Notes under the pieces: generated by a model | Database searches by the model: none | What the model was told of the DNA's origin: nothing | Seen by the model: the letters and a program-made list of their open reading frames with translations, nothing else | Shown: one piece after another, positions 1 through 41,178 of the stretch | Position numbering within the stretch: the first letter of the stretch is position 1 | Layout: each line of letters begins with the position of its first letter | From: a virus | Taxonomy: Duplodnaviria; Caudoviricetes | Length of the DNA stretch: 64,000 bases | IMG/VR virus record: IMGVR_UViG_3300021431_004524 | Location: 32,001-96,000 of that record | Strand: one strand, 5' to 3' | Translations under genes and position numbers: made by a program

Positions 1-975
1 ATTATAATCAACACAGAAGGTGCTAATACAGACCTTGCTGTAAACGTTGATGGTACTACAATTGTTAAAAATAGCGGTGCTTTGAAGGCTAACCTTACTC
101 TCGCAAAGTTAACTGCTGATGAAGTAACTGCACTTGCAGATGCTAATGTAAAAGAAGCATATAAGATTATCTATGCAACCGATAGCAACCGTACTGCCAT
201 TGGTGATACTGTAAAGATTTATAAAGATAGTGCATTGCATAGTGTTTATCTTGGTCACGTTGATGATGCTGTTAAAAGTACAACCGACCCAACTGTTGTT
301 CCTGGTACTGGTGATACTGCACTCTGCTTCATTTATCAGAAAGCTGATGGCACATATGAACTTATTGCTGTCAATGTTGAAAGTTTCTTACAGGAAAGTG
401 AATTTGCAGATGGCTTGCAGGTGAACAATCACGTTGTTTCTGTAAAATTAGATTCTAATTCTGAAAGATTCTTGACTGTTGGTACAAATGGCGTTAAGTT
501 AAGTGGCGTACAGGATGCTATTGCTGCTGCTGTTGCAGATTTAGATGCTACTCCTTCTCAGACTGCTGGTACTGATGGTCTTGCTTTGAGTCTGACTGAA
601 GTTAATGGTGTTGTAACTGCTATCAGTGGTTCTATTGCTGCTAACACATATGATGCATACGGTGCTGCTGCTGCTGCAAAGAGTGAGGTTATTGGTGAAA
701 GCACTGATGCTTCTTCTGCTGACACTATCAATGGTGCTAAGAAGTATGCTGCCGAGGCTGTTGCTGCTGCCGTTGAAGGCCTTGATGTAACTGACGCTGC
801 CGTTGCTAATCAGTTCGTTACTTCTGTTTCTGAAACTGATGGTAAAATTTTTGTAACACGTGCTCAGCCTGCTGCTGTCGGTGTAACTGTTGCTGATGAC
901 GATGGTTACTTCAGTGCAACAGATGTTGAAGGTGCTCTTGTTGAACTTGCAGCATTTGATTGCGGTACTTATTAA
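1..975 (+). CDS. Tail fibre / virion structural protein, 5'-truncated by the window edge
   Basis: Frame is open from base 1 (IIINTEGANTDLAVNVDGTTIVKNSGALKANL...). Ala/Thr/Asp/Val-rich, with a fibre-like C-terminal motif (GYFSATDVEGALVELA...DCGTY). Followed by a terminator. Confidence 0.55.
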   Translation: MIINTEGANTDLAVNVDGTTIVKNSGALKANLTLAKLTADEVTALADANVKEAYKIIYATDSNRTAIGDTVKIYKDSALHSVYLGHVDDAVKSTTDPTVVPGTGDTALCFIYQKADGTYELIAVNVESFLQESEFADGLQVNNHVVSVKLDSNSERFLTVGTNGVKLSGVQDAIAAAVADLDATPSQTAGTDGLALSLTEVNGVVTAISGSIAANTYDAYGAAAAAKSEVIGESTDASSADTINGAKKYAAEAVAAAVEGLDVTDAAVANQFVTSVSETDGKIFVTRAQPAAVGVTVADDDGYFSATDVEGALVELAAFDCGTY

Positions 976-1011
976 TAGATTATTTGAAAAACAATAACTT
1001 ACATAAAAATT

Positions 1012-1047
1012 AATTCCTGAGTATTAAAAGTTACTCAGGAATTTTTT
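1012..1047. terminator. Bidirectional intrinsic terminator
   Basis: AATTCCTGAGTA-8 nt-TACTCAGGAATT perfect 12-bp stem flanked by A and T runs, between convergent genes. Confidence 0.8.
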
Positions 1048-1049
1048 GT

Positions 1050-1532
1050 TTATAATAGTAATATTGTCATTGCCACTGCTATATATGAAATAACTTCAAA
1101 TATGAATGTGTATTTTTCTTTTTGGAAAAATGTCCATATACCACCAAGTAATGCAATTAGACTTAATGTAATCCATTGTCCCATTAATAATAACCAAGCA
1201 AGACCGGTAGCAAATGCAACCATTCCTGAAGTATAATGTATAGTACTCTCAAATTTTTCTTTAAATAATGGAGAACATCCTGCAAATATCATTCCACTAC
1301 ATGAAAGGAACACGACAAATTGGTAAAACTCCTGTGTAACGGTTATCCACAATGGAAATATGCACACTGCTGAAATAAAGCATATAGCCGTGAACGGCCA
1401 CATAACACCGAATTTATTTTTCGATATGTATGATGTTTCACTGATTGACTCCGGAACTCCTTTATTTAACCATATAAAGAAAGCGTTGTATAATACAAAA
1501 ATTATAAGTCCGACAATAAGTAATATCTTCAT
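1050..1532 (-). CDS. Integral membrane protein (about 5 TM segments), function unknown
   Basis: 160 aa with multiple long hydrophobic stretches. Confidence 0.7.
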   Translation of the reverse strand: MKILLIVGLIIFVLYNAFFIWLNKGVPESISETSYISKNKFGVMWPFTAICFISAVCIFPLWITVTQEFYQFVVFLSCSGMIFAGCSPLFKEKFESTIHYTSGMVAFATGLAWLLLMGQWITLSLIALLGGIWTFFQKEKYTFIFEVISYIAVAMTILLL

Positions 1533-1556
1533 TTTTAATATGTTATATAATAATAA

Positions 1557-3161
1557 TTAGTATGGAAAATCATTCTCAATTTCTTCAGCGTTAACTGTAA
1601 AATCATGGTCAATAATGTCAAATATATTGCCAATTACAACATTGTATTTCTTTGACACGAAATTATTGGAGTCTGTATCCTCATCAACAATTGCAAGTAT
1701 TCTATCCGGTATAACCCCATCCTCAATAAACTCATCAACCTCACTTTCAGTAAGTTGGTTAATTGCATTGTTGTACATTGTCAATTCAAGTTGAATTTCC
1801 TCTTTTTCCAATTGTTTCTGTCTTTCAAAGTAGTCAGCCTTTATCTTTTCCCAATCCATTCCTATTTCCTTGGCATATGGTGGAATCTTATCAACAGTTG
1901 TCCAGAATTTAATCTCCTTGTCTTCCATTGTCATAAGTTGTTCATATGTATCTTGGTCTGTCGGATTGTAAGGTTGGCCGGATACAAGTTGACATTCATC
2001 ATCAGTAAATTGTTTTCTGTCATCCGGATTACTTATCAAAATATTAGACACTTCCTTACCCTTTTCGTTTATCTTTGTACGGATATCACGTGAGAAACAT
2101 ACCAGCAACGGCTTGATTTTCTTATTGAACATTTCAACGTATTTATCTACGTTATATTCGAAATTATCATCACAGAAATGGTCATCCTCATCCTCAACAA
2201 TATCATTTGAAAGAAGAATACAATTGAATATAAGCCTATCTTCCTCTTTGAATGAATGTCCATATTGTATTTTACCGAAATCAGACTTCGTAATCCATTT
2301 CCCATTAGGCTGTTTCATTTCGTCTGGACGGTCTTTTTTTGCTTTGGTGTACAATCTTTCCAACTCCTTTGTAATATTGGCTTCTTGACCGTCTATTTCA
2401 GCGAAATAGTCAGTTACACGCTTCACATCAGAGTCACCTTTCTTTGAACCGGTGTTAATGTAGTAAATACTGTCACCCATGTTCACGTTTAGGTTATGTT
2501 TGATTGCGAGTTCATACCATGCTTGGCGTGCTTTTTTAGTACCGCCGGCTGTAAGTTGCTTGCAGTTCTCCTTGTAATTGGCAATTGATGTCTTGATTTT
2601 ACCAACTGTTGCAATATCTTTAAGCGGTATCTGAAGGTTGTATATCTTTTCTACATAATCATAGTATGCTTCAAGAAACTCCTTTCCTTTTCCTTCAAGT
2701 AACAGACGAATACCCTTATCAAAGAATTTCTCAATGTAAATTGGCATTTTCTTGGATTTAATTGAATTACCAACGAGTTTGATTTTACCATCCGGCATTA
2801 AGTCAGCATAGTTCTTACGTGAAAACTGTATGCACGCTTGGCAATACTCATCAACACCGAGTCCGTTCTTTAATATACCACCGTTATATGCTTCATACAT
2901 ATAAGTGTCTTCAAATTCCGCAACATCTGCTTCGACACGTGTATATTCTTTTCCTTCTTTCGTGTTACGACCCTTTCCTTTGCCTATATAGGGATGGTCT
3001 TTTGTATAACGGAAATTTTCTTCTTTTGGCATTTGGAAGTTGAAGCCATCGGTATTGGATATAACATTCATTCCAAGGGCGTTTACAACTGTACCGTCCA
3101 AAGAAATGTCATATACAACACCGACTTCCTCCTTTCCTTTAATTTTTTTACTGTTCAACAT
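1557..3161 (-). CDS. polB: Family B DNA polymerase, C-terminal half, fused to an N-terminal split-intein C fragment
   Basis: Begins with intein blocks F/G (VYDISLDG...GMNVISN), then TDGFNF (rest of motif C) and downstream PolB motifs (SRKNYA, KIKLVG). Confidence 0.9.
   Translation of the reverse strand: MLNSKKIKGKEEVGVVYDISLDGTVVNALGMNVISNTDGFNFQMPKEENFRYTKDHPYIGKGKGRNTKEGKEYTRVEADVAEFEDTYMYEAYNGGILKNGLGVDEYCQACIQFSRKNYADLMPDGKIKLVGNSIKSKKMPIYIEKFFDKGIRLLLEGKGKEFLEAYYDYVEKIYNLQIPLKDIATVGKIKTSIANYKENCKQLTAGGTKKARQAWYELAIKHNLNVNMGDSIYYINTGSKKGDSDVKRVTDYFAEIDGQEANITKELERLYTKAKKDRPDEMKQPNGKWITKSDFGKIQYGHSFKEEDRLIFNCILLSNDIVEDEDDHFCDDNFEYNVDKYVEMFNKKIKPLLVCFSRDIRTKINEKGKEVSNILISNPDDRKQFTDDECQLVSGQPYNPTDQDTYEQLMTMEDKEIKFWTTVDKIPPYAKEIGMDWEKIKADYFERQKQLEKEEIQLELTMYNNAINQLTESEVDEFIEDGVIPDRILAIVDEDTDSNNFVSKKYNVVIGNIFDIIDHDFTVNAEEIENDFPY
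3054..3161 (-). mobile_element. Split intein C-fragment (IntC, 36 aa)
   Basis: MLNSKKIKGKEEVGVVYDISLDGTVVNALGMNVISN|T: VYD block F, terminal Asn, +1 Thr. Confidence 0.85.
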
Positions 3162-3178
3162 ATTGTTTATATTTTATA

Positions 3179-3210
3179 CAAAGATACTATTTACTTTTTA
3201 AAAATACAAA
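3179..3210 (-). promoter_or_regulatory. Bacteroidetes sigma70-type promoter for the IntC-PolB C-half
   Basis: Minus strand TTTG-N20-TATCTTTG, matching the Bacteroides -33/-7 consensus, just upstream of ATG 3161. Confidence 0.7.
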
Positions 3211-3219
3211 TTTTGAGCG

Positions 3220-5103
3220 TTAATCTTTCTTAAACCACTTATAGACAGCAGTTCCACAATCATAAATTCTATACCATTTTTGTTGTTTACAAAATTCACT
3301 TTCGCTCATATCTTCAGGACACCCATATTTTTTTACAAGGACACTTTTTCTATAATTGAATCTGTTTTTTCTTACATCACCAATTACGTAATAATAGTTT
3401 GGTTTAGAAAAATGACTAAATGTAAATCCAAGATTCTCATATAAGTTTCCCTTTGACCATCTTCTGTCTGCGTATGATACCACATTACTAGGATGATATT
3501 TTTCTATAAAATACTTAAATAATTTTGATGCCCCACCTATGACTTGTGTATTGATTTTATTACAAAATCTTAATAATTCATATTGCATCTTACCGTCACC
3601 AATAAAATGCCTTGATTTACCGAATGTCATTAATGATACTAATTCATCGCTATAATATAAGCCCAATTTAATTTGGCTTGGACACCATCCTTGTATGTGA
3701 TTTTTATTAAGAAAATCTGTACATTCTTTTGTCCCTATTTCTTTAACAATACACTTTCTTGCATATATTTTATTATCAGTTTTATTTAAAAGATTAGAAA
3801 TCATAGATTTCCATATCTCTTTTTTATAAATCCATTCGTCTTCAAATATATGAATTAATCTAATACCATGTTTTTCACATTCTAATGTTTTCCACAAATG
3901 ATAATCATTTGGTCTGTTATTTTCATTATGCCAGAATACACCGTCGAATTCAAAAGCCATTTTCATAGATGGAATGTAAATGTCGAGTTCTTTTCCATCA
4001 AGAATAGTTCTATCATTATTGTAAATGTCTGTATATCCAAGTGTTTTAATAAATTCAGCGATTTCCTTTTCTTTTGAAGATGAGTTACAATTATGATATG
4101 GACAGCCATGACCTTGTAAGAATGAATTAGCCTCAATAGAAAATGTACGTCCGCATTCATTACATTTTACTTCAACTTTCTTATCTGATGCTATATATTT
4201 ACTCAATACTGTGTATTTATTATCTCCATGTATTAGTTCAGCATCTTTTATAAACTGTTCTGTCGTTTTTGTTTTATTTTTAGCAATAAGGATTTTATTA
4301 CATTCCGGACATGGGTCTCCTTTTAAGGAATTATTAAAAAATGTGTTTGCTTTTCTTGTAAATTCATGACCGCATGTTCGACATGTACACTTCATTGGTT
4401 TCATTGTGCCGTCATATGATGTATAATCCACCATTATTGACGGATATAGTTCATTCATTCGTTTTTTAACTTCTTCTAAAGGTAAACGTTGTTTTGCACC
4501 GCTTTTTCTACCGGCGCATTTTTTACAGGAATAAACACCAATCAAAATGTTAGAAATCTTTTTAAAATCTTCTTTACCACAGGTTTTACATTTAACTGAA
4601 ACACGGTCTTTTTTTATATTTTTTTCTCCTTCAAATTGTTCAATATCAAAACCTTCAATTTTTTCTATCAATTCATTATATGAAATGGTTTCTTTTGGCA
4701 ATTCTTTACACCAACACCCGCCTGTTTTAGAACTTACAAAATCACAAGCGATTTTTACAAAAGTTTTACCACATAAATTACATTTAACCGTTATTTTACT
4801 ATGACTGTTTTCATATTCTTTATCTATATTAGGAAAAGAATACCGGTCACCAAATCGTTCCTTAGCCGTTTGAACAAAATTTTTCCATTTATTTTTAGAA
4901 TATGTTGCGGCATATTTTTTACCACACTCAGGACAACCTTGACCTTGTAAATGATTATGCGGTGTCTGCTGAAATCGATAACCACATTTTTTATGTGTCA
5001 TCCACATTTTAATTTTAGTTTTAATATAACTGTCTGGTTCATAGATATATTCATCCCCATGAACTTCACGTGCTTTATTTTCAAACCATTCGTAATTGTG
5101 CAT
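3220..5103 (-). CDS. Free-standing putative homing endonuclease: 5 Zn-ribbon repeats + PD-(D/E)xK (Vsr/DUF559-like) domain + C-terminal GNAT/Mom-like domain
   Basis: Repeated ~60-aa units ending CxxC; ELDIYIP...AFEFDGVFWH...LIHIFEDEW nuclease motif; C-terminal YELLRFC...VVSYADRRWS.GNLY. Lies between the polymerase halves. Confidence 0.75.
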   Translation of the reverse strand: MHNYEWFENKAREVHGDEYIYEPDSYIKTKIKMWMTHKKCGYRFQQTPHNHLQGQGCPECGKKYAATYSKNKWKNFVQTAKERFGDRYSFPNIDKEYENSHSKITVKCNLCGKTFVKIACDFVSSKTGGCWCKELPKETISYNELIEKIEGFDIEQFEGEKNIKKDRVSVKCKTCGKEDFKKISNILIGVYSCKKCAGRKSGAKQRLPLEEVKKRMNELYPSIMVDYTSYDGTMKPMKCTCRTCGHEFTRKANTFFNNSLKGDPCPECNKILIAKNKTKTTEQFIKDAELIHGDNKYTVLSKYIASDKKVEVKCNECGRTFSIEANSFLQGHGCPYHNCNSSSKEKEIAEFIKTLGYTDIYNNDRTILDGKELDIYIPSMKMAFEFDGVFWHNENNRPNDYHLWKTLECEKHGIRLIHIFEDEWIYKKEIWKSMISNLLNKTDNKIYARKCIVKEIGTKECTDFLNKNHIQGWCPSQIKLGLYYSDELVSLMTFGKSRHFIGDGKMQYELLRFCNKINTQVIGGASKLFKYFIEKYHPSNVVSYADRRWSKGNLYENLGFTFSHFSKPNYYYVIGDVRKNRFNYRKSVLVKKYGCPEDMSESEFCKQQKWYRIYDCGTAVYKWFKKD

Positions 5104-5176
5104 ATATATTTGTGTTATATTAATAAATATATACCAATGTGTAATTATTCATCAATATTTAATTCTTTTTAATGAC

Positions 5177-7681
5177 TTATATACAACTCCTTAAATATAA
5201 TATACCGGCAATTAATGTTTTGCATTCCGAAACTTTGGATAAATCCATTTTTGAAAGAAATTCTTTTTTACATTCGACTGTAGCATTAAGCAAATCAATT
5301 GGTATTGCATTAAGTCTACCGTTTGATAAAAGTTTTGAATATTTATCTATTCGTATTTCATCTATTACAATCTGATTATTTGAAATATTGTTATTATAAT
5401 ATTCTAATTTTGTATCAGAATTAATTTCAGATGGTTTGATTTTTTCTTGTTTTTCATTAAACAAACTATGGTCTTCAGTAACATCAATACTCATTTTAAC
5501 TTCATCGTCGCTAATTCTGTATATGGGTTTTGTGGTTTTATGACGGTAGATATAAGATGGTTCTACCCACCCGCTTCTGCAAAGCACTTTGAAATCTTTT
5601 TTTGAATAATCATATTCTCTACCTAAACCATCAAATTCTATTTTATCTTCATTAACAAGTTCTGAGATTGGTTTAATGTCAATTAATCCACTATTATTGT
5701 ATTTTATAAATAATGGAGTGTCCTCTGTAAATGAATCTCCCACTATTGGGGTATAACCAATATTTGTAAAATGAGAAATCATAAGACGAAGCATTTGTCG
5801 ACCAGTACAAGTTGTTTCCTCTGCACATTCAAGGTCAGACCAAGGAAATATGCCACCCGAACCATAAGACCCAAAAAAGCCGTTCCCCACAACCTTCAAA
5901 GGTAATTGCATCTTATCATTACGCATCTTAAGCATTTTGGCTGTTTGCTGCTTATCTTTCAGGTCGTTAAGCATTGCTTCTGTAAGTCTATCTATCTCTT
6001 CTTTAATACGTTTTGCTATTTCATCAGCCTCATCACCATATTTACCTTTAAGTTCTTTATAGTATTCACGTTGAGTAAGAATATAGTTAAGAAGAGCAGA
6101 CATCACATCCATAAGGTCAATTTCAGACCTAATCCCAAACGTGAGAATAATTGACGGATAAAGTGAATTATAGTCAAGTTTTACAATTCTATCAACATAG
6201 CCGACTTTAAGTAATCGGGACAAACCGCCAGTAAATGCTTTCTGTTGAATTAATTCAGGTACAGCCAAGTTATTTTCATAACTCCATGCAAGCATAATAT
6301 ATTTCCAAATAGCGGCAGTACCCATTGTACACATCTTTTCATAAGATACCGGAAGCATCTTACCTACAAGATAGTTAGACTGATTGTATCGTAATTCAAT
6401 TTTATCAGTTTCCCACAAGTCATCAAGAAGATAACGTTGTACTACATATCTACCGGTGACAAATTCAAATTTTTCATCATTTTCATTGTCAATGAGCATT
6501 TGTTTACCGTCTTCCTCATACCTATTATATCTTAATTGACCATCAGAAGTTGTTTTGGCAAGTAATTTTTCATCGACTTTGAACCAATGTCCGTTTTCAT
6601 CATTAAATGCATAGTCCGGATTTAAATCTTCCCATGTCGTGTTAATTATTTTACCCGGAACATAAACACGATTCTTCTTGGCAATATTTGAATATTTGGT
6701 TACATATTTCAATGTTGCCGATTTCATATTTGAATCGAGTGCTTGAGCACGTCTTACAGCAAACAATGAATCAGTAAGGTTTGTTCCCCACATTACAGTT
6801 GGGAAGTAATATTCCATTTCACCGCCAAGTTTAAGGACTTGCTGTTTCTTTTTCTTATATACACCCTTTCTGAAATATTTAAGAGTGAAATCACCCATTT
6901 TAATATCAGCAAGACTAAGACGGACATCAACAAAATTCCAGTCAAAGTTTTCTGTGTTATGCCCGGTTATGATATCCGGTTGTAATTCCTTGATTATTTC
7001 AAAAAATTCACATATTGCCGCTAATTCGTTCTTACGTTTTTCCTTACCTGTACCGGTAACTGTGATGATTTTCTCAAATCCTTTGTTTGTCCTAATACCA
7101 ATTTGGCTGATTGCATGGATTTGTGGGTCAAGTCCTTCCGTCTCCAAGTCCCATTCCATTCGTAGAAGGTCATCATAATCATCATATCCTTTAAACATTC
7201 TACGTCCGGTTTGTATCATATACTGTTCAACAGGAGAAACAGCAATATATTCCTTTAATCCGTAATTTTTATCACGTTGTCTAGGATATACCGGTCTTCC
7301 CGCTTTTTTGAAAAAATCCATGAATTTAGAATAGGTCATAGGAACTTTTGCATAGAACATAAGTTTATAACCATTCTTCATGCGTTCCGGTTCTGAACCG
7401 TCATCACGTGTAGTTCTTAATGCTTTTACACCGATTCCATATTCAGACAAGTTAAGTCTTATCTGTTTTCTGTCACCATTGAATAAGTTTTGTGCGGTTG
7501 TTTCTTTACACCATATAAAAGGGAAGAAATTGTCTCTTTTAATACGTTTTTTCCCTTGTTCGTCACGATAGATAATACTTACCTTATCATCATTGTATTC
7601 ACATTCTATCTTAATAATCCTTTCCATTGGGTCAGAACCAGATAAAAATGCATCAATCTGTTCTTTTGTAACTTTTGACAT
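5177..7681 (-). CDS. polB: Family B DNA polymerase, N-terminal half (3'-5' exonuclease + motifs A/B), fused to a C-terminal split-intein N fragment
   Basis: ExoI WDLETEG, ExoII GHNTENFD, motif A LDYNSLYPSII, motif B KVVGNGFFG; motif C breaks after IVGD, followed by intein block A SFTEDTP. Confidence 0.92.
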   Translation of the reverse strand: MSKVTKEQIDAFLSGSDPMERIIKIECEYNDDKVSIIYRDEQGKKRIKRDNFFPFIWCKETTAQNLFNGDRKQIRLNLSEYGIGVKALRTTRDDGSEPERMKNGYKLMFYAKVPMTYSKFMDFFKKAGRPVYPRQRDKNYGLKEYIAVSPVEQYMIQTGRRMFKGYDDYDDLLRMEWDLETEGLDPQIHAISQIGIRTNKGFEKIITVTGTGKEKRKNELAAICEFFEIIKELQPDIITGHNTENFDWNFVDVRLSLADIKMGDFTLKYFRKGVYKKKKQQVLKLGGEMEYYFPTVMWGTNLTDSLFAVRRAQALDSNMKSATLKYVTKYSNIAKKNRVYVPGKIINTTWEDLNPDYAFNDENGHWFKVDEKLLAKTTSDGQLRYNRYEEDGKQMLIDNENDEKFEFVTGRYVVQRYLLDDLWETDKIELRYNQSNYLVGKMLPVSYEKMCTMGTAAIWKYIMLAWSYENNLAVPELIQQKAFTGGLSRLLKVGYVDRIVKLDYNSLYPSIILTFGIRSEIDLMDVMSALLNYILTQREYYKELKGKYGDEADEIAKRIKEEIDRLTEAMLNDLKDKQQTAKMLKMRNDKMQLPLKVVGNGFFGSYGSGGIFPWSDLECAEETTCTGRQMLRLMISHFTNIGYTPIVGDSFTEDTPLFIKYNNSGLIDIKPISELVNEDKIEFDGLGREYDYSKKDFKVLCRSGWVEPSYIYRHKTTKPIYRISDDEVKMSIDVTEDHSLFNEKQEKIKPSEINSDTKLEYYNNNISNNQIVIDEIRIDKYSKLLSNGRLNAIPIDLLNATVECKKEFLSKMDLSKVSECKTLIAGILYLRSCI
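5180..5734 (-). mobile_element. Split intein N-fragment (IntN, 185 aa, Ser1)
   Basis: SFTEDTPLFIK (block A) ... DVTEDHSLF (block B TxxH). No C-terminal Asn block before the stop. Confidence 0.85.
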
Positions 7682-7753
7682 GATTATTTTTAATTAATTC
7701 TTATTTAATCCAGTTAAGCCACACCTACATGGGCATCATGGATATTTCTACGG

Positions 7754-7785
7754 CAAATATACTGTAAATATTCTATATTTCCAAG
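7754..7785 (-). promoter_or_regulatory. Bacteroidetes-type promoter for the polB N-half
   Basis: Minus strand CTTG-N20-TATATTTG upstream of ATG 7681. Confidence 0.6.
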
Positions 7786-7883
7786 TAATTAAATGTTAAA
7801 TTTATATAATATTTATAATTGATATGAATATTATATTAATGGTAAAGTAGCACAAAAGAGAATTGTAATACAGAAGAAATAAA

Positions 7884-8285
7884 CTATTTTTTTATCCCAC
7901 TGTCACTTATAGTAATAATCAAATCTTCGGCAATTGGTGCAATTAATTCGCCTTTTGGAAAAGTCATTCCATCAATTGAAATATTATCATCGAATTTAAT
8001 CTTAAATTGTCCTATATAGTTACCGGGGGTATCTGTATCACGTTTGTTCCAACGATATTCAATTACATAGGCTTCTTCACAACCAGTATCTTCTTTTTCC
8101 ACTACATATGCTTTTGCATTGGCAATTTTCTTAACGCCTGTTTCCATATTGGTCATCGTAAATGTAACTGTTGCTGCTTGAAGCGCAAGATAAGCCTTGC
8201 GGAAGTCGTTTCTTCCGTCGTTTATTACCTCCATACGTAAATTTGGAAGAGTTGAGTTTTTTGCTAAAAAGAAATATTGTGCCAT
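7884..8285 (-). CDS. Virion structural protein, BppU N-terminal-like
   Basis: LPNLRMEV...ATVTFTM...IEYRW..RDTDTPGNYIGQFKI...TFP pattern resembles baseplate upper protein N-domains. Confidence 0.45.
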   Translation of the reverse strand: MAQYFFLAKNSTLPNLRMEVINDGRNDFRKAYLALQAATVTFTMTNMETGVKKIANAKAYVVEKEDTGCEEAYVIEYRWNKRDTDTPGNYIGQFKIKFDDNISIDGMTFPKGELIAPIAEDLIITISDSGIKK

Positions 8286-8306
8286 ATCAAGTTAATTCTA
8301 TTTTAG

Positions 8307-8318
8307 ATAAATATTTAT
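8307..8318. promoter_or_regulatory. Palindromic double copy of the candidate late-promoter motif (ATAAATATTTAT)
   Basis: Perfect palindrome giving ATATTTAT on both strands between two divergent structural genes. Confidence 0.45.
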
Positions 8319-8341
8319 TAAAATAAAGATAATATGAAAAT

Positions 8342-9505
8342 ATGGCGTTAAGCAAGGAAAAAGAAAAACTTTTCAGACAAGTAAGGACACGTTTGGGTGT
8401 TAAGGTACGTTCAGTTGAACTTACCGATGACATGTTGTGTGATTTACTTGAGCAGGCCGTTGGTGATTATACGGAAAAAGTACAGAATTTCATTATAGAG
8501 TCAAACTGGGCACAGTTATACGGAAAGAATTTCAACAACGAAATAACAAATCAAGATATAGCATACGCCTTAACAACACGTTCTCTTGATATGATGAAGG
8601 ATTTCGGTGATTGGTTTTCAAAACAAGTTGGACTTCAGCAACACGGTAAATGGGAACTTAAAAAGGATTTCTTCAAAATAGAAGAAGGAAGACAAGTGTA
8701 TTTAGTTCCTGCCGGTAGGGAAATAAATAAGGTACTTTGGATTACCCCGCCAACCACGCACACTGCTTTATGGGCTAACTATGGTGGTTTTAGTACCGCT
8801 TTTGGCGGCGGAGTTCAAGGTCAGATGGGTCTTGGTGCTGCAAGCATTTTCGGTGGCATAGGTAGTGGCTATGGTATGGGTGTCGGTATGTGGGCATTAC
8901 CAATGGCTGATGTGGCTACTATGGCAGCAGATTTATCATTCAAGAACCAGATGATACGTAGTGACCTTGTTTATAAAGTAACCGCAGGTCCTGATGGTTC
9001 ACATTTAATACATCTTTTATCAACACCAGGGAGTAAACTCACATTTGGTGCAGGTGGTATGCCAGGTATGTATTCATTAAAAGACTGTTATGTGTGGTAT
9101 ACATACTATGATACTAATCCAAGTAATGCGGATGAATGTAGAAAGGATAATCCGTTTGTGATTCTTTCACCGGACCAAGTACCAATGGATGAAATTGACT
9201 ATGAATTGTTAAACACACCATCAAAGAATATTGTTCGTCAATTATTAGTTGGCTTGGCTGCTGAGACATTAGCATTGATACGTGGAAAATTCAGTGGTTC
9301 TATAAATATGATTAGCAGTCCGTTACAAATGGATTATGGCCAATTGATGACTCTTGGTAATCGTGAGAGAGATAATGCTATGAATGACTTGAAAGAACGT
9401 CTGTTACGTATGTCCCCTTATGAAATAATGAAGAAAAATGCAGATATGGCAGATGATTTAAGACGTTTACAAAAGAGTGTTCCATTAGGAATTTATCGAC
9501 ATTAA
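8342..9505 (+). CDS. Neck / head-tail adaptor protein (T4 gp13-like)
   Basis: N-terminal RLGVKVRSVELTDDMLCDLLEQA and C-terminal RGKFSG...LQMDYGQL...ERD resemble gp13. Confidence 0.75.
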   Translation: MALSKEKEKLFRQVRTRLGVKVRSVELTDDMLCDLLEQAVGDYTEKVQNFIIESNWAQLYGKNFNNEITNQDIAYALTTRSLDMMKDFGDWFSKQVGLQQHGKWELKKDFFKIEEGRQVYLVPAGREINKVLWITPPTTHTALWANYGGFSTAFGGGVQGQMGLGAASIFGGIGSGYGMGVGMWALPMADVATMAADLSFKNQMIRSDLVYKVTAGPDGSHLIHLLSTPGSKLTFGAGGMPGMYSLKDCYVWYTYYDTNPSNADECRKDNPFVILSPDQVPMDEIDYELLNTPSKNIVRQLLVGLAAETLALIRGKFSGSINMISSPLQMDYGQLMTLGNRERDNAMNDLKERLLRMSPYEIMKKNADMADDLRRLQKSVPLGIYRH

Positions 9506-13204: not shown

Positions 13205-13235
13205 CAAATATACTACATTTGTTTTAAACCACAAA
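13205..13235 (-). promoter_or_regulatory. Bacteroidetes-type promoter for the helicase-exonuclease operon
   Basis: Minus strand TTTG-N19-TATATTTG. Confidence 0.65.
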
Positions 13236-15528: not shown

Positions 15529-18500
15529 ATGGCAAATACGAATAATAATAACGCAAGACAGACACACGTAAGTCCGGGTATATACACAAAGGAAACCGAC
15601 CTGACTTACGCATCAAAGTCTCTTGGTATTACTACTTTGGGTCTTGTTGGTGAAACCTTAAAAGGTCCCGCATTTCAGCCAATAACAATCGAAAATTGGA
15701 GACAGTACCAACAGTATTTCGGTGGAACAAGTACTGAGAAATACAGAGGAAGCCAATATCCTAAGTATGAATTACCTTATATTGCACAGTCGTATCTCAA
15801 ACAGTCAAATCAGCTTGAAGTATGCCGTGTTCTTGGTCTTTCTGGTGTTAATGCCGGACCTGCTTGGATTGTAACGGCTAAGAAAGAAAATGGAACATAT
15901 GATGATATGGTCGTGTTCGTACTTCGTTCAAGAGGTGAACACAAAAAGGCTGCTTTCTTACGCCATCCAACTGAGGAAGATAAGAAAAACGGAATTTGTA
16001 GTGATGTTTATGAGAATGACGGAATTGTGTATTATACCTCAGCAGTTTCACTTGATGTAAGCAAAACACTTGAATTCGGTAACGAATGTAGTCCAAGTCC
16101 AACGACCGAATCCGGCGACTTTAAAGTGAATGTTAATAACTACGGACGTTTTACGATTGTTGTAACCACTAATACAGGTGCTATAAAAAAATACTCCGTA
16201 TCACTTAATCCGGGTGAAAAGAACTATATAATTAATGTTCTTGGCACGAATCCTGAAATCGGTGAATCTGAGGTTTATGTTGAAGAACTTTATGATGTTG
16301 CATTGGAGCAATTAATTGAAAGAGGTGAAATTGATAGTATTAATCACATACCTACTGAATATAAACTCACATACATAGTACCTAAGTATGATGAAGTGGA
16401 TGATATTCTTACTTACGAGGAAGATTTGCTTACAAGAAAAGACGTTGGCAAACGTTTCCTTTACAGTTCATCACTTTCAAAAAATGGTAATGATGCTGCA
16501 ATTAATGTGCATGTATCTACTGATGATGGTAAGACTTGGACTGAAATGGCCGGTAGTGTAGGACATATCTATACTGTTATTCCATTCACAACTTCAGAGG
16601 GTACACGTAAATACTACTATGGTGAATACAATAGTACAGGTGATGGGTCGAATACGGAAATTCTTACTACTGATAGAACAGTTGACCCGACAAGTCATAT
16701 TTTTGATAATGCCGTTAAGGTTAGGTCTTATGAGTCGTTCTTTGTCCTTGAAGATGGTGATGTTAAACCGGTTACTCTTGATATGAACAACTATAAGGAA
16801 CAGTTCAGATATGCTTCGACACCTTGGATATTGTCAGAAATGAAGGGTGATGCTGAAAACATTGAGATTAACAGACTTTTCAGATTCCATACTATTTCTG
16901 ACGGTAATACTGCAAATACGGAAGTTAAGGTTTCTATTGAGAATATTGACCCTGAATATGGTACGTTCGATGTAATTGTACGTGATTTCTATGATACTGA
17001 TAACGCACCTGTTGTATATGAAAGATATAAGGGTGTTAATCTTATCCCTGGTGACAAGAACTATATCTCATTAAGAATCGGTTCATTCGATGAGGAATAT
17101 GAAAACATGTCTAATTACATTACTGTTGAGGTAAATGAAAATGACAAGACAAAGCAGTCAATTCCTGCCGGTTTCATGGGCTATCCGGTAAGAAATTATG
17201 AGAACGGTATTACAATACAGAATGTTTCAACAAAACCAAAAAAACCATTCTTCCAATATAATACTAATGTAGATGCCGACATAAGAATCAATAAACAGTA
17301 TTTTGGTATTTCTAATATTACCGGTATTGATGAGGATATCTTGAAGTATAAGGGCGTTGAGGCATATGATGAGGAACCAGATGGACTTACACCATGTTTC
17401 CACCTTGATTCACGTATTCTTGAAACTGCTTATAAGACGAAATACGACATTATACAAAATGTAACGATTGATGGCGTTGGCGGTTATGAATGGGTTACAG
17501 TAGGTGCTGAAAATCAGACTATGTTCGGTATCGAACCAAGAATCGGTGACTTAGAAACCATGATGGGCACAATCTATGAGGATAAGAGATACCGTAAGTT
17601 CACTCTTGCTTTCTGCGGTGGTTTCGACGGATGGGATTATTACCGTACCTCAAGAAGTAATTCAGATGACTTCAAATATACAAAATACAAGGGAAAGATT
17701 AATAGACAGAGTGGAATTGGTACAATGCTTTCTGTAATTAAAGACCCTGAGAATTATGGCTTCGGTGGAGGCGATAAGGTTTTGAACTCAGACTTCTATG
17801 CCTATCTTTCCGCTTACAGGCAGTTTGCTAATCCTAAGACAATTGACATTAACGTGTTTGCAACACCCGGTATCGATTATGTTAATCAGAATGCACTTGT
17901 CGGTGAAGTCATAACAATGATTGAAGAGGAACGTGCAGACTCAGTATATGTCGTTACGACACCTGATAAGCCTTATGGTGCAAGTGATGCTGAAGGTGAC
18001 ATGTTTACACCGTCTGATGCTGTTGATAATCTTGATGATTCTGAAATCGATAGTAATTACACTTGTTCATATTATCCTTGGTGTAAATACTTTGATGAAG
18101 AAAATAACAAATATATTTATCTGCCACCAACACGTGACGTAGTACGTAACTTTGCTTATACTGACAATACTAAGTATCCTTGGTTTGCAGCAGCAGGTTG
18201 GTATCGTGGTGAGATTGAGGACAAGGGTGTTAAGCCTAAGAAGTCTTTGAAACTCGGTGAACAGGACGTGCTCTATGCCGGACGTTTGAACTTCATTAAT
18301 ACTTTTGCAAAAGAAGGTATGAAGATTTGGGGTGATAAGAACATGCAGGTTCGTGAGAGTCAGATGAATAGGATTTCTAAGAGAAGATTGCTTATCCGTA
18401 TTAGAAAACTTTGCTCTATTGCTTGTATCGGTCTTATTTTCGACCCGAACGACAACACAACGAAGCAGTCATTTGAAAGTGCAATCACGCCAATCCTTGA

Positions 18501-18678
18501 CAATATCATGGCAAATCGTGGTATTACCGATTGGAGACTTGAAATCGATGACAGTCAAGAGGCACGTGACAGACTTGAGTTACCTGCTAAGATTTATATC
18601 AAACCACAGCCTAACCTTGAATATATAGATATTAATTTCGTTATTACACCACAAGGTACAAACTGGGACGATATTTAA
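15529..18678 (+). CDS. Contractile tail sheath protein
   Basis: SPGIYTKETD start, GETLKGPAF, YYPW, PWFAAAGWYRG, IWGDKN, FDPND and KPQPNLEYIDINFVIT sheath motifs. Confidence 0.95.
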   Translation: MANTNNNNARQTHVSPGIYTKETDLTYASKSLGITTLGLVGETLKGPAFQPITIENWRQYQQYFGGTSTEKYRGSQYPKYELPYIAQSYLKQSNQLEVCRVLGLSGVNAGPAWIVTAKKENGTYDDMVVFVLRSRGEHKKAAFLRHPTEEDKKNGICSDVYENDGIVYYTSAVSLDVSKTLEFGNECSPSPTTESGDFKVNVNNYGRFTIVVTTNTGAIKKYSVSLNPGEKNYIINVLGTNPEIGESEVYVEELYDVALEQLIERGEIDSINHIPTEYKLTYIVPKYDEVDDILTYEEDLLTRKDVGKRFLYSSSLSKNGNDAAINVHVSTDDGKTWTEMAGSVGHIYTVIPFTTSEGTRKYYYGEYNSTGDGSNTEILTTDRTVDPTSHIFDNAVKVRSYESFFVLEDGDVKPVTLDMNNYKEQFRYASTPWILSEMKGDAENIEINRLFRFHTISDGNTANTEVKVSIENIDPEYGTFDVIVRDFYDTDNAPVVYERYKGVNLIPGDKNYISLRIGSFDEEYENMSNYITVEVNENDKTKQSIPAGFMGYPVRNYENGITIQNVSTKPKKPFFQYNTNVDADIRINKQYFGISNITGIDEDILKYKGVEAYDEEPDGLTPCFHLDSRILETAYKTKYDIIQNVTIDGVGGYEWVTVGAENQTMFGIEPRIGDLETMMGTIYEDKRYRKFTLAFCGGFDGWDYYRTSRSNSDDFKYTKYKGKINRQSGIGTMLSVIKDPENYGFGGGDKVLNSDFYAYLSAYRQFANPKTIDINVFATPGIDYVNQNALVGEVITMIEEERADSVYVVTTPDKPYGASDAEGDMFTPSDAVDNLDDSEIDSNYTCSYYPWCKYFDEENNKYIYLPPTRDVVRNFAYTDNTKYPWFAAAGWYRGEIEDKGVKPKKSLKLGEQDVLYAGRLNFINTFAKEGMKIWGDKNMQVRESQMNRISKRRLLIRIRKLCSIACIGLIFDPNDNTTKQSFESAITPILDNIMANRGITDWRLEIDDSQEARDRLELPAKIYIKPQPNLEYIDINFVITPQGTNWDDI

Positions 18679-18754: not shown

Positions 18755-18786
18755 TTTGGTTATTTGGAAATAAAGTAGTAAATTTG
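18755..18786 (+). promoter_or_regulatory. Bacteroidetes-type promoter for the second endonuclease
   Basis: TTTG-N20-TAAATTTG. Confidence 0.65.
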
Positions 18787-18846
18787 AATGTAATTTTTAA
18801 AAATCACGATTCGATTGCTATTATATCGCTGAATATTATTGCAAAT

Positions 18847-20520
18847 ATGAAAAAAATAAGGTCATTTGAGGAAACTGTTAAATTGTTCAGAGAAGTTCAC
18901 GGTTACAAATTTGAATATTATCCAGAGACATATCACGGTAGTGCATATAAGATGAAAATGCATTGTAATATTTGTGGATGTGATTTTGAACAAACCCCTA
19001 ATAAACATTTATTAGGAAGAGGATGTCCTGAATGTGGCGGGACTAAAGTTTGGGACAAAGATAAATTCGTTAAAGAAACTGAGAAAATATTTCCAAAACA
19101 ATTTTCTTTTGATGAAACAAATTATGTTAACCAAAGGACACCTCTTATTGTGACTTGTAAAAAACATGGAAATATTGAAGTTATTCCTAAAACATTTCTG
19201 AAAGGTTGTGGGTGTCCATATTGTAAAGAAGAAAAAAATAAAAAATTTGCTGATAGTTTTGAAGAGCGTGCAAGAAAAATACATCCTGTGGAGGAATGTT
19301 TGGATTACGGTGAAAGTTGTTATGTAAATATACATACACCATTGAAGATAATATGTCATAAGAAAGATGAATATGGTGTGGAACATGGTGAGTTTTGGCA
19401 AACGCCAGCACATCACCTAAGTGGTCAAGGATGTCCTAAATGTAATGGCAATTTCAAAATGACTGGTAAGGAATTTGAAATAAAATCTAAGAAAATTCAT
19501 CAAGATAAATTTACATATTTTACTGAAAAATATAATGGTTATAATGAAAATGTGGAGATTAAATGCAATACATGTGGTAAAATATTTTTTCAAACTCCAC
19601 ACAATCATTTAAAAGGTGAAGGTTGTCCATATTGTGTTGGTAATATATCTAAACCGGAAACCGATATTGCTGAATTTATTTCACAATATACATATATAGA
19701 TACAAATAATAGAAAAATATTAGACAATTCAAAGGAAATAGATATTTTAATTCCTGACAAGAAAATTGCATTTGAATATGATGGGTTGGTGTGGCATTCA
19801 GAAAAATTCGGAAAAGACCGAAATTACCATCTTAATAAAACCGAAGAATGTAAAAATAAAGGAATAAAATTATATCATATATTTGAAGATGAATGGGTAT
19901 TTAACAGAGAAATTGTAGAGTCAAGAATAAAGAATATACTTGGTGTAACAGAAAATAAAATATATGCAAGAAAATGCAGTATAAAAGAAATAAGTGATAA
20001 TGATGCAGAAATATTTTTGAATAATAATCATATACAAGGGTATTGTAAGTCAAAATATAGATACGGTTTGTTTTATAATAATGAATTAGTGTCTGTTATG
20101 ACATTTGGGCATCTTCGTAAGAATTTAGGCAGTATAGGAAATAACGACGAATATGAACTACTTAGATTCTGCAATAAGCTTGATACTACTGTAACAGGCG
20201 GTGCTTCTAGACTACTTAAGTGTTTTATAAACAAAGTACATCCAAACAGAATTATAAGTTATGCTGATAAAAGATGGAGTAATGGTAATCTTTATGAAAA
20301 GTTAGGATTTAAACATGTAAAGGATAGTCAACCTGGATATTTCTATATTATAGGACAACGCAGAGAAAATAGATTTAAATATAGAAAGGATAAACTTGTT
20401 AAAGAAGGATATGACAAAAATAAAACCGAACATGAGATAATGATTGAACGTGGAATATATAGAATATATGATTGTGGAATGATGGTTTTTGAGATGATAA
20501 TAAATAATCCCGATGAATAA
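18847..20520 (+). CDS. Putative homing endonuclease, paralog of 3220-5103 (4 Zn-ribbon repeats + PD-(D/E)xK + GNAT/Mom-like); start at ATG 18847
   Basis: GCPxC repeats; EIDILIP..KIAFEYDGLVWH; HIFEDEW; YELLRFCNK...ISYADKRWS.GNLY; RIYDCG. Confidence 0.75.
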   Translation: MKKIRSFEETVKLFREVHGYKFEYYPETYHGSAYKMKMHCNICGCDFEQTPNKHLLGRGCPECGGTKVWDKDKFVKETEKIFPKQFSFDETNYVNQRTPLIVTCKKHGNIEVIPKTFLKGCGCPYCKEEKNKKFADSFEERARKIHPVEECLDYGESCYVNIHTPLKIICHKKDEYGVEHGEFWQTPAHHLSGQGCPKCNGNFKMTGKEFEIKSKKIHQDKFTYFTEKYNGYNENVEIKCNTCGKIFFQTPHNHLKGEGCPYCVGNISKPETDIAEFISQYTYIDTNNRKILDNSKEIDILIPDKKIAFEYDGLVWHSEKFGKDRNYHLNKTEECKNKGIKLYHIFEDEWVFNREIVESRIKNILGVTENKIYARKCSIKEISDNDAEIFLNNNHIQGYCKSKYRYGLFYNNELVSVMTFGHLRKNLGSIGNNDEYELLRFCNKLDTTVTGGASRLLKCFINKVHPNRIISYADKRWSNGNLYEKLGFKHVKDSQPGYFYIIGQRRENRFKYRKDKLVKEGYDKNKTEHEIMIERGIYRIYDCGMMVFEMIINNPDE

Positions 20521-21053: not shown

Positions 21054-21224
21054 CTTGTATGTAAGTCAATTATAATTTTTATTTTTATATTCTCTTTTAA
21101 TCTTTTTCAACTATAAATATGCTAAAAAATGTTTTTTATTTGTTTTTTTTTCAAAAAAATTGTAGTATTTTTGCAAATGGAAGTAATATATAATGGGATT
21201 GTGGTTTATTAAAATATGTATGGA

Positions 21225-33673: not shown

Positions 33674-33705
33674 TTTGGTAAAATGAAAAATAAGTAGTAA
33701 TTTTG
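33674..33705 (+). promoter_or_regulatory. Bacteroidetes-type promoter of an inserted (moron-like) gene
   Basis: TTTG-N20-TAATTTTG. Confidence 0.7.
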
Positions 33706-40600: not shown

Positions 40601-41152
40601 GTTAATTCTTCATTTAAGCAATGGTTCGAATGGAGTATGAGTTGGGAAGGCGGCTCAGGCGGAGTTACTAGTGTGGCTAAAAAACAATACAAAATAGATG
40701 GCGGCACATCAGACACACCCTCAATAGAAGATATTGCTTTTGTTAGTTTTTGGAAGGTTAATCATCTAGATGATATTAAAGATGCCAGTGTTGCTATTGC
40801 GTGTATGTATACAATATTTTGGACGGGTAATTGTGCCTTAATTATTGATGCAATAAATGGTACGCCCTATTTAAACTCAAAAAGTTGGCCGTGGAGACTT
40901 AAAATAAGCGATATTCAGACAATTAATAATTTTCAGCCACTAAAACTATTTAATAAAATTAAAAAACAAGCAGGAAACTTTATTTTAGACCCGCCATCAT
41001 GGGCAAGTTTACCTGGTGGTGGCGACCCTAAACCTGGTTGGAGAAGAAGATGGTTTTCTATTGATTATGGTCCATCTTTAATATCGAATGCCGGTATGGG
41101 AAATAAAAGATATAGCGAAGAAGATTTAAGAAATGCAATGTCAAAACTTTGA
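34637..41152 (+). CDS. Large baseplate hub / tail-associated lysin with C-terminal peptidase M15-like and GH108-like domains
   Basis: 2171 aa; hub-like YICEIEMMGDAQIQPLMYFQL...GVYMIFNVTHTI; SKR...SCHTTGNALD...IHFS (M15); WEGG...FWK...GWRRR (GH108-like). Confidence 0.65.
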   Translation: MANSEKNIVHQKDRIFYVEPNDIYGSVDGVPLTPDYSDYCISVNLIAEIVTRYRQSGEDKTMALTVSYSGAPGEESSNKWVSFLKGEDAKIFGGEGNFLTTYYTDIDYDDIVKKNIVEGLGIESIQISFESYYTPTVVIKFIDVRGSSLFGREEAVHESGEELSSSSVFGAFFTIPYPKFKLQVKGFYGHGVTYQLTCSNFKASFNSQTGNFEAVATFIGYSYSLLTDIPLRYLVAAPYCKYVGEKYWEEHLNTPAWALSGGERPMKLFKLIDKIKSFLDDNKINEKLMTDEQTEIKNNISNEKAQLTTLATTYKEYVEALKGLNKTSSSLRIIRGEGENDEQLLIFSPSQENEVTDKLILASQAFINAFDTYNSSNNGKAFSNSLLPNSKHDIFEANRRIIFGKLCKVTRTDNKITGVTFNCTEQSSEGIKTIELNNNNKPSDEVARCLFEDSHPEDGDIKSYFSDYCYLVNLNKFLDKINERIENLNKEDKEINKQIAENVQTKAAYKLGFTPYIGDIFKIIMCHLETFIKIMWECYNNITKSDRSPGYLNVPLESTDFVNLDKNKGQIGAWPGLFNNGKKTDQGGDEDKSIEYLAWVGDFSHNFEEEKVIIELYKAVKKIAPGEPLEPKPVTMVAGLPVMPNDVNNIDTVFGESIENNISSLAGYLSFRAAQIFGILLKEKASTELASSLGKMDAYNFFTCLQSRSELKNTYINAESGNSLENILNGVSKCSNDFDSFCNKTYQETDKTRHSFETVYKIAQNYNNRDRHPLFKDEGSNLKYVHYYTLNNVGLVPDKLTSYKEYRNIFEYKYDKEKPYFLFNRKTDTSSTSEFLHKSSCKALFTNIGKVDEDKEDLYKVEKYINDDMFNVIVNPEISNSIKKKYDEIKSGTFTIYGDEFTDDFSNVLEKLWHVEDSDYGVFFNGNTSMLSKPFADFDIKEEELYPLMKDKINDDKAPSSVDNEKLFNIDGKTITYSVNDGNGRWVDENNNEYSLSNLTVRNIRVVFPKSNGYGEQDLFGDPFYYLQNNKLADYKFETNDNDRKLRQKRAKAILFLHALNYDLSKIPQFLKSTKKSGGIYSLPYGYVLLLGGLLWRDNFIKEKKIDPIQSGSDGYIKVGDNNTLFVKLNDGQYRMCALMNDDKRKYNITVSSLFGGGKNWKPDYHITNKLISLFLRFVDNEWSLIMSKLELKTVGVDKKTDGVGDYICSTFKKDVASFKYNIDEILNNKRDVYLRDFKKLIKKSAWTLYRLRVEYFNNFFDNYRYIWVKKEHRNGDGRGLMLLLNESNNDVQSILKNLYTKRVIVCDSSGYYYTYDEDSKNNEITIGNDVFNAYLSGFRSKIEDIANNEKNDTNDEYGESDVTLKRDIELSMYMYLKILWDRWLVSTTNKKLPDGRIISYQDYYNVENFYNSFIFIDAFYLNIYKKLLINCESLKRSYDGRDEDGTLFQFIGDITKDHHCLFLALPDYVDMGNAKAEKAINSMQNMFRPIPYSEMNDVETENRFVIIYSPRMSENPTSDNGYREDYFRVWNPVTNDFDEKMPTAFTNTPVTENSDLVSRYGYYVPSFGVAFSRQNNHIFKNINLDMSTPLVTSASINALSRISQIGSASPHKVAFMGQDLYPVYSNYSYICEIEMMGDAQIQPLMYFQLMNIPMWSGVYMIFNVTHTISAGTMTTRFKGMKLSRNPVPYSSSWFVFNPDASTYDPYERDEEENNYDWGDGNFGTGGNVSIDSSYNRVTNPKDHFSEKVNRRDFGEEGIKKTKETVSKKLQNIYNCLYEEIASLPENKPTMKWNVHIISSKRDKNSKAGVGSKSCHTTGNALDLCVTHFDETGKVKEYVKDGSSQPELYKVIDILCSLHRDEIYQILGEFWSTDAFMQNRDNFAMIHFSDRHNIEGHGNHTKFICQLHRNGKLSRGERKTFTRINRDHDKAWFNANVPKAFFEIAKKFYHALGTSTFRKEFGNYGDYTDNELNALFGSPVTNGNRSTPVNSSFKQWFEWSMSWEGGSGGVTSVAKKQYKIDGGTSDTPSIEDIAFVSFWKVNHLDDIKDASVAIACMYTIFWTGNCALIIDAINGTPYLNSKSWPWRLKISDIQTINNFQPLKLFNKIKKQAGNFILDPPSWASLPGGGDPKPGWRRRWFSIDYGPSLISNAGMGNKRYSEEDLRNAMSKL

Positions 41153-41178
41153 AATTTCATAAAAAAGTAGTATATTTG
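41148..41178 (+). promoter_or_regulatory. Bacteroidetes-type promoter
   Basis: TTTG-N19-TATATTTG. Confidence 0.65.

Follow-up and report, generated by a model that had tools for sequence, protein, structure and literature searches.

A probable fractured family-B DNA polymerase gene of a gut or rumen phage, broken within motif C by a split intein and a Hef-type homing endonuclease gene

Fractured genes, in which the halves of a host gene are fused to the pieces of a split intein and flank a free-standing endonuclease gene, were described by Dassa, London, Stoddard, Schueler-Furman and Pietrokovski (Dassa 2009; PMC2677866) at gp41, NrdA, NrdJ, IMPDH, DnaE, ligase and terminase loci of the GOS metagenomes. 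Natural split inteins of phage family-B DNA polymerases (PolB) are likewise published and used as tools; they include Aes123 PolB1, CP21 PolB1, LCGC14 PolB2 and GOM-OPS-1 PolB2, as well as PolB16 OarG from a sheep-gut metagenome (PMC10189870, PMC11923092, PMC12707363). Here, a window of 64,000 nucleotides (nt), comprising bases 32001-96000 of the 235.6-kb IMG/VR virus record IMGVR_UViG_3300021431_004524 (estimated to be 60% complete), was analyzed. In this window a PolB gene is broken in its catalytic motif C by the N-terminal (IntN) and C-terminal (IntC) pieces of an intein. We estimate at about 0.8 the probability that this is a functional fractured polymerase gene, the halves of which trans-splice, which harbors a Hef homing endonuclease gene between them and which descends from a LAGLIDADG maxi-intein.

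The arrangement fits the loci of Dassa 2009 feature by feature. Two same-strand open reading frames (ORFs) are colinear with unbroken homologues and carry the IntN and IntC motifs, and the order host-N/IntN, short spacer, free-standing Vsr-like endonuclease gene, short spacer, IntC/host-C is the same. The phage origin is also shared, as is a hairpin-like element ahead of the nuclease gene. However, PolB is not among the host genes named there, and the IntN pieces of those loci comprise 88-105 amino acids (aa) compared to 185 aa with a LAGLIDADG relic in the window. Zn-ribbon repeats and a GNAT-like domain characterize the long Hef-type nuclease of the window, in place of the NUMOD repeats of Dassa 2009. 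With the published phage PolB split inteins the window shares the family-B host, Ser1 with Ser/Thr+1 oxy-ester chemistry, the R/K-His "NX" motif and the mesophilic phage origin. PolB16 differs in its position after GDTD, its Ser+1 and its atypical split of 15 + 168 aa (GD/TDG and Thr+1 in the window), and its structural alignment to the window IntN was weak (Z 6.6). The other published members have an IntN of 115-120 aa, and none is described with an endonuclease relic. The distinctive points of the window are thus the LAGLIDADG relic, a Ser-Asn terminus, the lack of an IntN match in isolate phages and a population of related alleles that covers every stage in the occupation of one codon. The locus is composed of the following parts:

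5177-7681, minus strand: N-half ORF of 834 aa, PolB N-terminal part followed by the 185-aa IntN
5735-7681, minus strand: PolB N-extein, aa 1-649, ending in ...YTPIVGD (Pfam DNA_pol_B and DNA_pol_B_exo1; phrog_262, E 1e-59)
3220-5103, minus strand: free-standing Hef-type homing endonuclease gene, 627 aa (PHROG; profile match to I-Bth0305I)
1557-3161, minus strand: C-half ORF of 534 aa, 36-aa IntC followed by the PolB C-terminal part
1557-3053, minus strand: PolB C-extein, 498 aa plus stop, starting with Thr+1 (3051-3053) of TDG (TDGFNFQ), colinear with intein-free homologues

The ORFs and their translations reproduced to the base the layout reported in the initial annotation of this DNA, i.e., three ORFs with an IntN of 185 aa, an IntC of 36 aa, a gene of 627 aa and spacers of 58 and 73 nt. 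The N-extein holds the exonuclease domain, motif A (LDYNSLYPSI), motif B (GNGFFGSYG) and the first aspartate of motif C (...IVGD), and the break falls between the two aspartates of this motif. The intein-free homologues P0009 (87% identical), P0014 and P0023, with lengths of 1126-1154 aa, are colinear with both window proteins and run YTPIVGD-TDGFNFQ uninterrupted at the junction, in agreement with the earlier proposal that joining the exteins restores motif C (GD-TDG). Because contiguous homologues align colinearly with both halves, the extein boundaries are fixed and are not motif guesses. Pfam and PHROG scans of the C-half revealed no family, and a tblastn search of phage records with the C-half gave Salinibacter phages alone, at 28% identity.

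About 60 distinct IMG/VR and metagenome contigs, from independent rumen and human-gut assemblies, carry IntN, one or more nuclease genes and IntC at the same codon, and the N-half protein was found identical on two contigs, the longest of 301 kb. A search with the first 649 residues of the N-extein yielded thousands of relatives; among the 120 best, 107 had a length of 814-875 aa corresponding to the split form, and 11 a length of 1113-1179 aa. Since the layout recurs across contigs, relatives and a second contig, it is neither a chance nor an assembly product. Comparison with the related split locus L002 (synonymous divergence dS ~0.3) gave ratios of nonsynonymous to synonymous substitution (dN/dS) of 0.04 for the N-extein, 0.05 for the C-extein, 0.14 for the IntN core and 0.15 for IntC. 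These ratios indicated that both exteins are under strong purifying selection. In the 235-kb record, PF00136 matched this polymerase gene only, PF00476 and PF07733 had no match, and no other DNA polymerase family was detectable. Given that no other polymerase was found in the 60%-complete record, replication would depend on trans-splicing.

The residues required for splicing were located in both intein pieces:

5408-5734, minus strand: IntN splicing core, intein aa 1-109 (conservation, AF2 model, structure matches)
5732-5734, minus strand: Ser1 of IntN
5540-5545, minus strand: R64-H65, "NX" motif of IntN
5468-5479, minus strand: block B of IntN, T86-E-D-H89
3054-3161, minus strand: IntC, 36 aa, ending in ...NVISN (translation)
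3108-3110, minus strand: D18 of IntC in block F (VYDIS)
3054-3056, minus strand: Asn36 of IntC in block G

IntN begins with SFTEDTPLF. Its conservation was assessed, and an AF2 model built, on 14 alleles that are 49-62% identical. Ser1, R64-H65 and T86-E-D-H89 are invariant across these 14 diverged alleles, and the codons for the terminal Asn and Thr+1 are retained in all but one of ~57 split alleles. The residues characteristic of a class 1 intein (Hint) are present, namely S1, T86-H89, D18 and N36 of IntC, and T+1; the R64-H65 pair upstream of block B corresponds to the R/K-His "NX" motif, a feature of Ser1 oxy-ester inteins (PMC10189870). The motif VYDISLDGTVVNALGMNV-x-SN is kept in the IntC of the split alleles. 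The penultimate His, a common although not universal feature of class 1, is lacking: the window IntC has Ser in this position, as do most split alleles, while His, Lys or Asn occurs in some, and the contiguous relatives end in HN.

The AF2 model of IntN (pLDDT 86.7) shows beta strands across residues 7-93. A Foldseek search with this model ranked the split PolB intein of Nanoarchaeum equitans (NeqN/NeqC, 5oxz) first, and ranks 1-19 were all inteins. VIA-align placed PI-PkoII (2cw7; best match) and the TliVMA intein at Z 11.1 over 175-179 of the 185 residues, whereas mini-inteins aligned to residues 1-114 only (Z 7-8.5). By this model, IntN has an intein (Hint) fold. The Neq Pol intein (5oxz/5oxx; Foldseek probability 1.00, 22-24% identity) is likewise split, resides in a family-B polymerase and begins with Ser1. 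In contrast to the window, it is archaeal and thermophilic, its two halves are encoded apart from each other with no endonuclease gene, and its IntN has ~98 aa.

The part of IntN beyond the splicing core, for which ordinary split inteins have nothing equivalent, was compared with contiguous inteins found in relatives at the same codon:

5180-5407, minus strand: IntN tail, intein aa 110-185, helical (MAFFT, hhalign, structural alignment to PI-PkoII)

These contiguous inteins (L003, L016, L047 and others) have 355 or 358 aa, two LAGLIDADG motifs and a His-Asn end; their profile matched PI-PkoII in the Protein Data Bank (PDB) with E 9e-7 and also archaeal VMA inteins, and they are 42-46% identical to the IntN core. 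In a MAFFT alignment the tail corresponds to the region of their second LAGLIDADG motif (VP..ILNA...KK.F., then SK...AG...), and hhalign of the tails against them gave a probability of 92.6% (E 4.4e-7) with positions 224-288 matched. The structural alignment to PI-PkoII continues through the tail (179/185 residues, Z 11.1). Because alignment, profile comparison and structure agree, the ~75-aa tail is identified as the relic of a LAGLIDADG endonuclease domain. Only the second-motif region is left of the two helices and catalytic acids of an active domain, and this without the catalytic GDG (FLSKMDLS compared to FLDGFCCGDG of the contiguous relatives). PI-PkoII and the inteins of L003, L016 and L047 are single polypeptides in which both LAGLIDADG motifs are intact; in the window the first motif and the GDG are lost, the chain is cut after the relic and the end is Ser-Asn. 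The tail is less similar between alleles than the splicing core (31-40% versus 60-80% aa identity to the window), but its length and several of its residues are conserved despite this divergence. The 185 aa initially annotated as the intein N-region are therefore right in extent, but ~75 of these residues belong to the endonuclease relic and not to the splicing domain. A 185-aa IntN with a relic implies descent from a maxi-intein and not the invasion of a mini-intein as in the model of Dassa 2009.

The protein encoded between the halves is divided into three parts:

aa ~1-340: four Zn-ribbon/treble-clef repeats
aa ~343-432: EDxHD/Vsr-like nuclease core with D374, E385 and W391-H392
aa ~450-620: GNAT/Mom-like C-terminal domain

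The 627-aa protein matched phrog_559 (E 1e-153) and phrog_3339, annotated as "homing endonuclease", and had Pfam matches, all weak, to DUF4379, MTES_1575, Vsr and Mom. A PDB search with the single sequence found nothing, whereas a profile (A5) built from 12 homologues matched the catalytic domain of I-Bth0305I (3r3p, E 3.9e-5) and the GNAT protein 2bsw (E 2.6e-3). D374, E385 and H392 are invariant in the 12 homologues and align with the catalytic positions D196, Glu and H213. More than a thousand isolate-phage proteins are related to the nuclease, among them "Hef-like" endonucleases that share 34-36% identity with it and come from the Bacillus phages AR9 and PBS1 and from Campylobacter phages. 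Hef-type enzymes were assigned to the EDxHD/Vsr-like family by Taylor 2011 (PMC3239194), and this family provides the nuclease in half of the Dassa 2009 fractured genes (PMC2677866). By its sequence, the middle gene encodes a member of the EDxHD/Vsr-like "Hef" family of homing endonucleases, predicted to be capable of cleavage.

In order to classify the alleles, 80 IMG/VR loci and 80 metagenome loci related to the C-half were collected and assigned by tblastn and by reading of the junction. At the same codon, three classes were distinguished: uninterrupted alleles, alleles with an in-frame intein of 355/358 aa, and split alleles with an IntN of 175-192 aa and an IntC of ~34-40 aa. Three of the loci compare with the window as follows (aa identity):

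L003, contiguous intein: N-extein 98%, IntN 42% (first 117 aa only), no nuclease, C-extein 97%
L002, split: N-extein 98%, IntN 55%, nuclease 39%, C-extein 97%
L007, split with gap: N-extein 71%, IntN 81%, nuclease 89%, C-extein 91%

Between L002 and the window, DNA similarity vanishes exactly across the tail and the first half of the nuclease gene; the repeat array of the nuclease has been exchanged while its nuclease half is still similar. A C-extein tree was built from 124 distinct sequences (58 empty, 41 split, 16 split with gap, 9 contiguous). The four states required 47 changes on this tree compared to a mean of 55 with shuffled labels, a count that is approximate since co-conversion close to the nuclease gene may obscure the tree. 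Sister sequences that are nearly identical can be in different states (L021 split and L173 empty; L156 split and L174 empty). This almost random scatter of empty, contiguous and split alleles points to active turnover, and judging by these comparisons the element is clearly mobile. Its cargo between IntN and IntC also varies in relatives, from one to four Hef-type genes to shorter Zn-ribbon plus DUF559 nucleases, opposite-strand genes of unknown function (L029) or nothing (L094).

Taken as a functional fractured gene, the locus would work as follows. The N-terminal gene would yield N-extein-IntN and the C-terminal gene IntC-C-extein; for the latter, the 58-nt spacer probably supplies a separate promoter. 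The two intein pieces would associate into a class-1 Hint domain, and oxy-ester splicing by N-O shift at Ser1, attack of Thr+1 and cyclisation of Asn36 would join ...IVGD to TDGFNF..., completing catalytic motif C. The nuclease presumably cuts polB alleles without it, so that recombinational repair would spread its gene together with flanking intein sequence. The split intein probably goes back to a contiguous maxi-intein of the LAGLIDADG type in this position, the endonuclease domain of which decayed to the relic in IntN, and the unrelated free-standing nuclease gene would occupy the former position of this domain.

Several other explanations were weighed. The halves could form a non-covalent two-subunit polymerase in which the intein pieces serve as dimerisation handles and splicing has been lost. 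Phages provide precedents in the split NrdA of Aeh1, gp39/gp60 of T4 and the intein-less split gp43 of Aeromonas phage 25 (PMC2677866; PMC3045599), and an IntC without the penultimate His would be in line with lost splicing. We nevertheless consider it improbable: every residue that serves splicing only (Ser1, R-H, TxxH, the block-F Asp, the terminal Asn and Thr+1) is retained among alleles with exteins ~50% diverged, and in an unspliced complex ~220 intein residues would separate the two catalytic aspartates of motif C. A trace less credible still is a decaying, non-functional polymerase gene in a phage that replicates by means of a polymerase encoded in the unsequenced ~40% of its genome or of the host enzyme. 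The 60% completeness of the record leaves room for this, and dispensable genes often gather selfish elements, but the dN/dS values on both exteins, the intactness of all three ORFs, the majority status of the split form among the best matches (107/120) and the lack of another polymerase family speak against decay. Removal of the intervening region as an RNA intron, or an assembly chimera, has next to no probability. No point in support of either was found; an Rfam scan of window positions 1-9000 detected no intron-like RNA family at E <= 1, the insert is in frame and encodes recognizable intein halves, and the layout occurs on the ~60 independent contigs with the identical N-half on a second one.

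The interpretation as a functional, trans-splicing fractured gene has points against it as well. We infer splicing, the separate transcription of the C-half, the activity and target of the nuclease and the order of the evolutionary events, and the succession of LAGLIDADG decay followed by invasion is one among several possible orders. Ser in place of the penultimate block-G His is an atypical feature that may affect Asn cyclisation, though it is conserved in most split alleles. Pfam intein models matched neither half at E < 0.1, so that profiles and structure were needed for recognition. In addition, a second polymerase could be encoded outside the 60%-complete record, and the blurring of the C-extein tree affects the count of gains and losses. 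The junction, the predicted Hint fold, the catalytic residues invariant in 14 alleles and the nuclease match to I-Bth0305I nonetheless bear out the fractured-gene reading of the initial annotation, and its statement that some T4-like phages have split PolB inteins is correct (Aes123 PolB1, CP21 PolB1; PMC11923092, PMC12707363). Its suggestion of a candidate new orthogonal split intein is reasonable, since tblastn of IntN against 50,697 phage records gave no match, but the intein is a member of a known family and not a new kind.

The locus adds a gut/rumen jumbo-phage family-B polymerase to the fractured-gene hosts and supplies a mesophilic Ser1/Thr+1 split intein. Split inteins of the "cysteine-less type" are rare and sought for protein ligation (PMC10189870, PMC12707363). 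At one codon, a single population of related phages presents empty alleles, intact LAGLIDADG maxi-inteins, relic-bearing split alleles and gap-bearing alleles. This allele series offers natural material on which the origin of split inteins can be tested and suggests a route unlike the mini-intein invasion of Dassa 2009.

The gap-bearing alleles were found at 19 distinct related split loci, the window excluded, and carry a short insertion directly 3' of the TDG codons:

L007:8100-8125, L013:655-680 and L019:8075-8100: gap loci
L024, L040, L044, L094, L099, L101: gap loci
L103, L113, L117, L118, L132, L134, L142, L176-L178: further gap loci

The gap always has the same form: GGY, then a stop codon with zero to three bases after it, then GGN, followed by FNF. 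Gaps of 2-6 nt occur (TA; TGAA; TGAAT/TGAAA/TAAAT/TGACA; TAGCTA/TAGTTA) and result in shifts of 5, 7, 8 or 9 nt. The cassette end in these loci reads ...Asn-ACC GAY GGY-stop, and beyond the gap the C-extein frame stays open for ~480 codons. The gap was absent from 58/58 empty and 9/9 contiguous alleles. L134 (gap) and L147 (no gap) are identical over ~1 kb downstream and different upstream, while in L176-178 the nucleotide sequence of IntC and gap is common to all three and the C-exteins differ; these patterns identify the gap as the 3' end of a mobile cassette. The window has no coding gap and reads ACC GAT GGC TTC AAC, and the stop and gap of a bypass element are thus missing from it. A single frameshift class was rejected as an explanation of the gap, as the shifts differ modulo 3. 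Stop-codon reassignment was discarded since TGA, TAA and TAG all occur and most gaps alter the frame, and re-initiation since an in-frame ATG is found in L019 alone, where the Met is native to the clade. An assembly error does not account for a gap that recurs across independent samples.

The gap is accompanied by an RNA helix that closes IntC, for which covariation was found:

3116-3125, minus strand: 5' arm of the 10-bp helix, GTCGGTGTTG
3048-3057, minus strand: 3' arm of the 10-bp helix, CAATACCGAT

In the helix, IntC codons (I/V-G-V-V) are paired to the junction (..AAC ACC GAT); it stops two bases short of the TDG Gly codon and includes two G-U pairs in the window. In alignment A6, 97.5% of the cells are paired, with two compensatory pairs, compared to 20-70% in slid controls. 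The complete 10-bp helix is present in 14/16 gap loci but in only 4/39 gap-free split loci, the window being one of these four.

A stop between matched codons is the hallmark of translational bypass, for which short natural counterparts of T4 gene 60 have long been expected; according to the same review, no natural in-frame stop-hop is known (PMC5009743). The gap of the relatives is, by its sequence, a candidate natural ribosomal stop-hop and touches on these expected short bypass sites. As in T4 gene 39/mobA/gene 60 with its 50-nt bypass, a homing-endonuclease cassette splits an essential replication gene, and the cassette ends of the 19 relatives resemble gene 60 in the matched codons of take-off/landing type around the stop. 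They differ from it in that the gaps measure 2-6 nt and not 50, that the window is without a coding gap, and that an intein, not association, joins the halves. The T4 bypass guards against MobA, the nuclease of the cassette itself (bioRxiv 10.1101/2022.08.31.505936). By analogy, the gap may break the nuclease target within the unchangeable motif C. We lean slightly toward a joint interpretation in which the IntC cassette lineage uses a short stop-hop and the locus records successive rounds of competition between selfish nucleases. If this is true, the window with its helix but no gap would be a healed or pre-gap allele, and relic and gap together would document such rounds at one codon of an essential gene.

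At L100:7100-7125, an 87% identical relative on a low-coverage contig, one extra base follows the GG of TDG (GGA T TTC AAC) and the helix has 9/10 pairs. The extra base may be a sequencing error; otherwise it would mark a +1 shift site.

The spacers and flanks of the three genes contain the following elements:

5104-5176, minus strand: 73-nt spacer from the N-half stop to the endonuclease ATG, with an AT-rich hairpin (minimum free energy -13.9 kcal/mol)
3179-3210, minus strand: Bacteroidota-type promoter-like site TTTG-N20-TAtcTTTG, just 5' of the IntC start (consensus match)
1381-1404, minus strand: terminator-like hairpin downstream of the C-half (region count not above shuffled expectation)
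13205-13235, minus strand: promoter-like site TTTG-N17-23-(A/C)AGTAnnTTTG
18755-18786, 21139-21173, 33674-33705, 41148-41178, 43049-43079 and 47565-47595, plus strand: further sites of the same consensus

The hairpin of the 73-nt spacer resembles those reported by Dassa 2009 upstream of such endonuclease genes (PMC2677866), but it is weak (z -2.0; 8/200 shuffles folded equally well). The RNA fold of the 58-nt spacer (3162-3219) was not significant (z -0.17). No terminator-like sites between the three genes appeared in the scan, and the scan for sigma-70 promoters and terminators was uninformative (38 found versus 36 expected). The Bacteroidota-type promoter consensus had 14 matches in the window compared to 5.7 expected, and an extended AGTAnnTTTG box occurs in eight sites, i.e., the site in the 58-nt spacer and the seven others. 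These shared boxes suggest a Bacteroidota host and a set of phage genes that depend on a host sigma factor; the host is probably a member of the Bacteroidota. A tail-sheath gene at window positions 15529-18675 identifies the source as a large myovirus, and we take it to be a jumbo myovirus from gut or rumen.

The genome contains three further Hef-type paralogues that differ in the number of Zn-ribbon repeats:

18784-20520 of the window, plus strand: Hef-type paralogue directly following the tail-sheath gene
G000 1051-3027 and 209581-210273: other Hef-type paralogues

Two additional insertions were noted in relatives. In L012, the distance between IntN and IntC is 6.3 kb and includes, alongside two Hef-type genes, an IS605-type TnpB/OrfB gene (L012:5031-6338, minus strand of the locus; PF01385 E 5e-17, PF07282). 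L042:8336-8665, L044:6947-7279 and L045:8288-8617 carry a second insertion of ~330 nt in the C-extein near residue 73-76, which could be another mini-intein or an intron.

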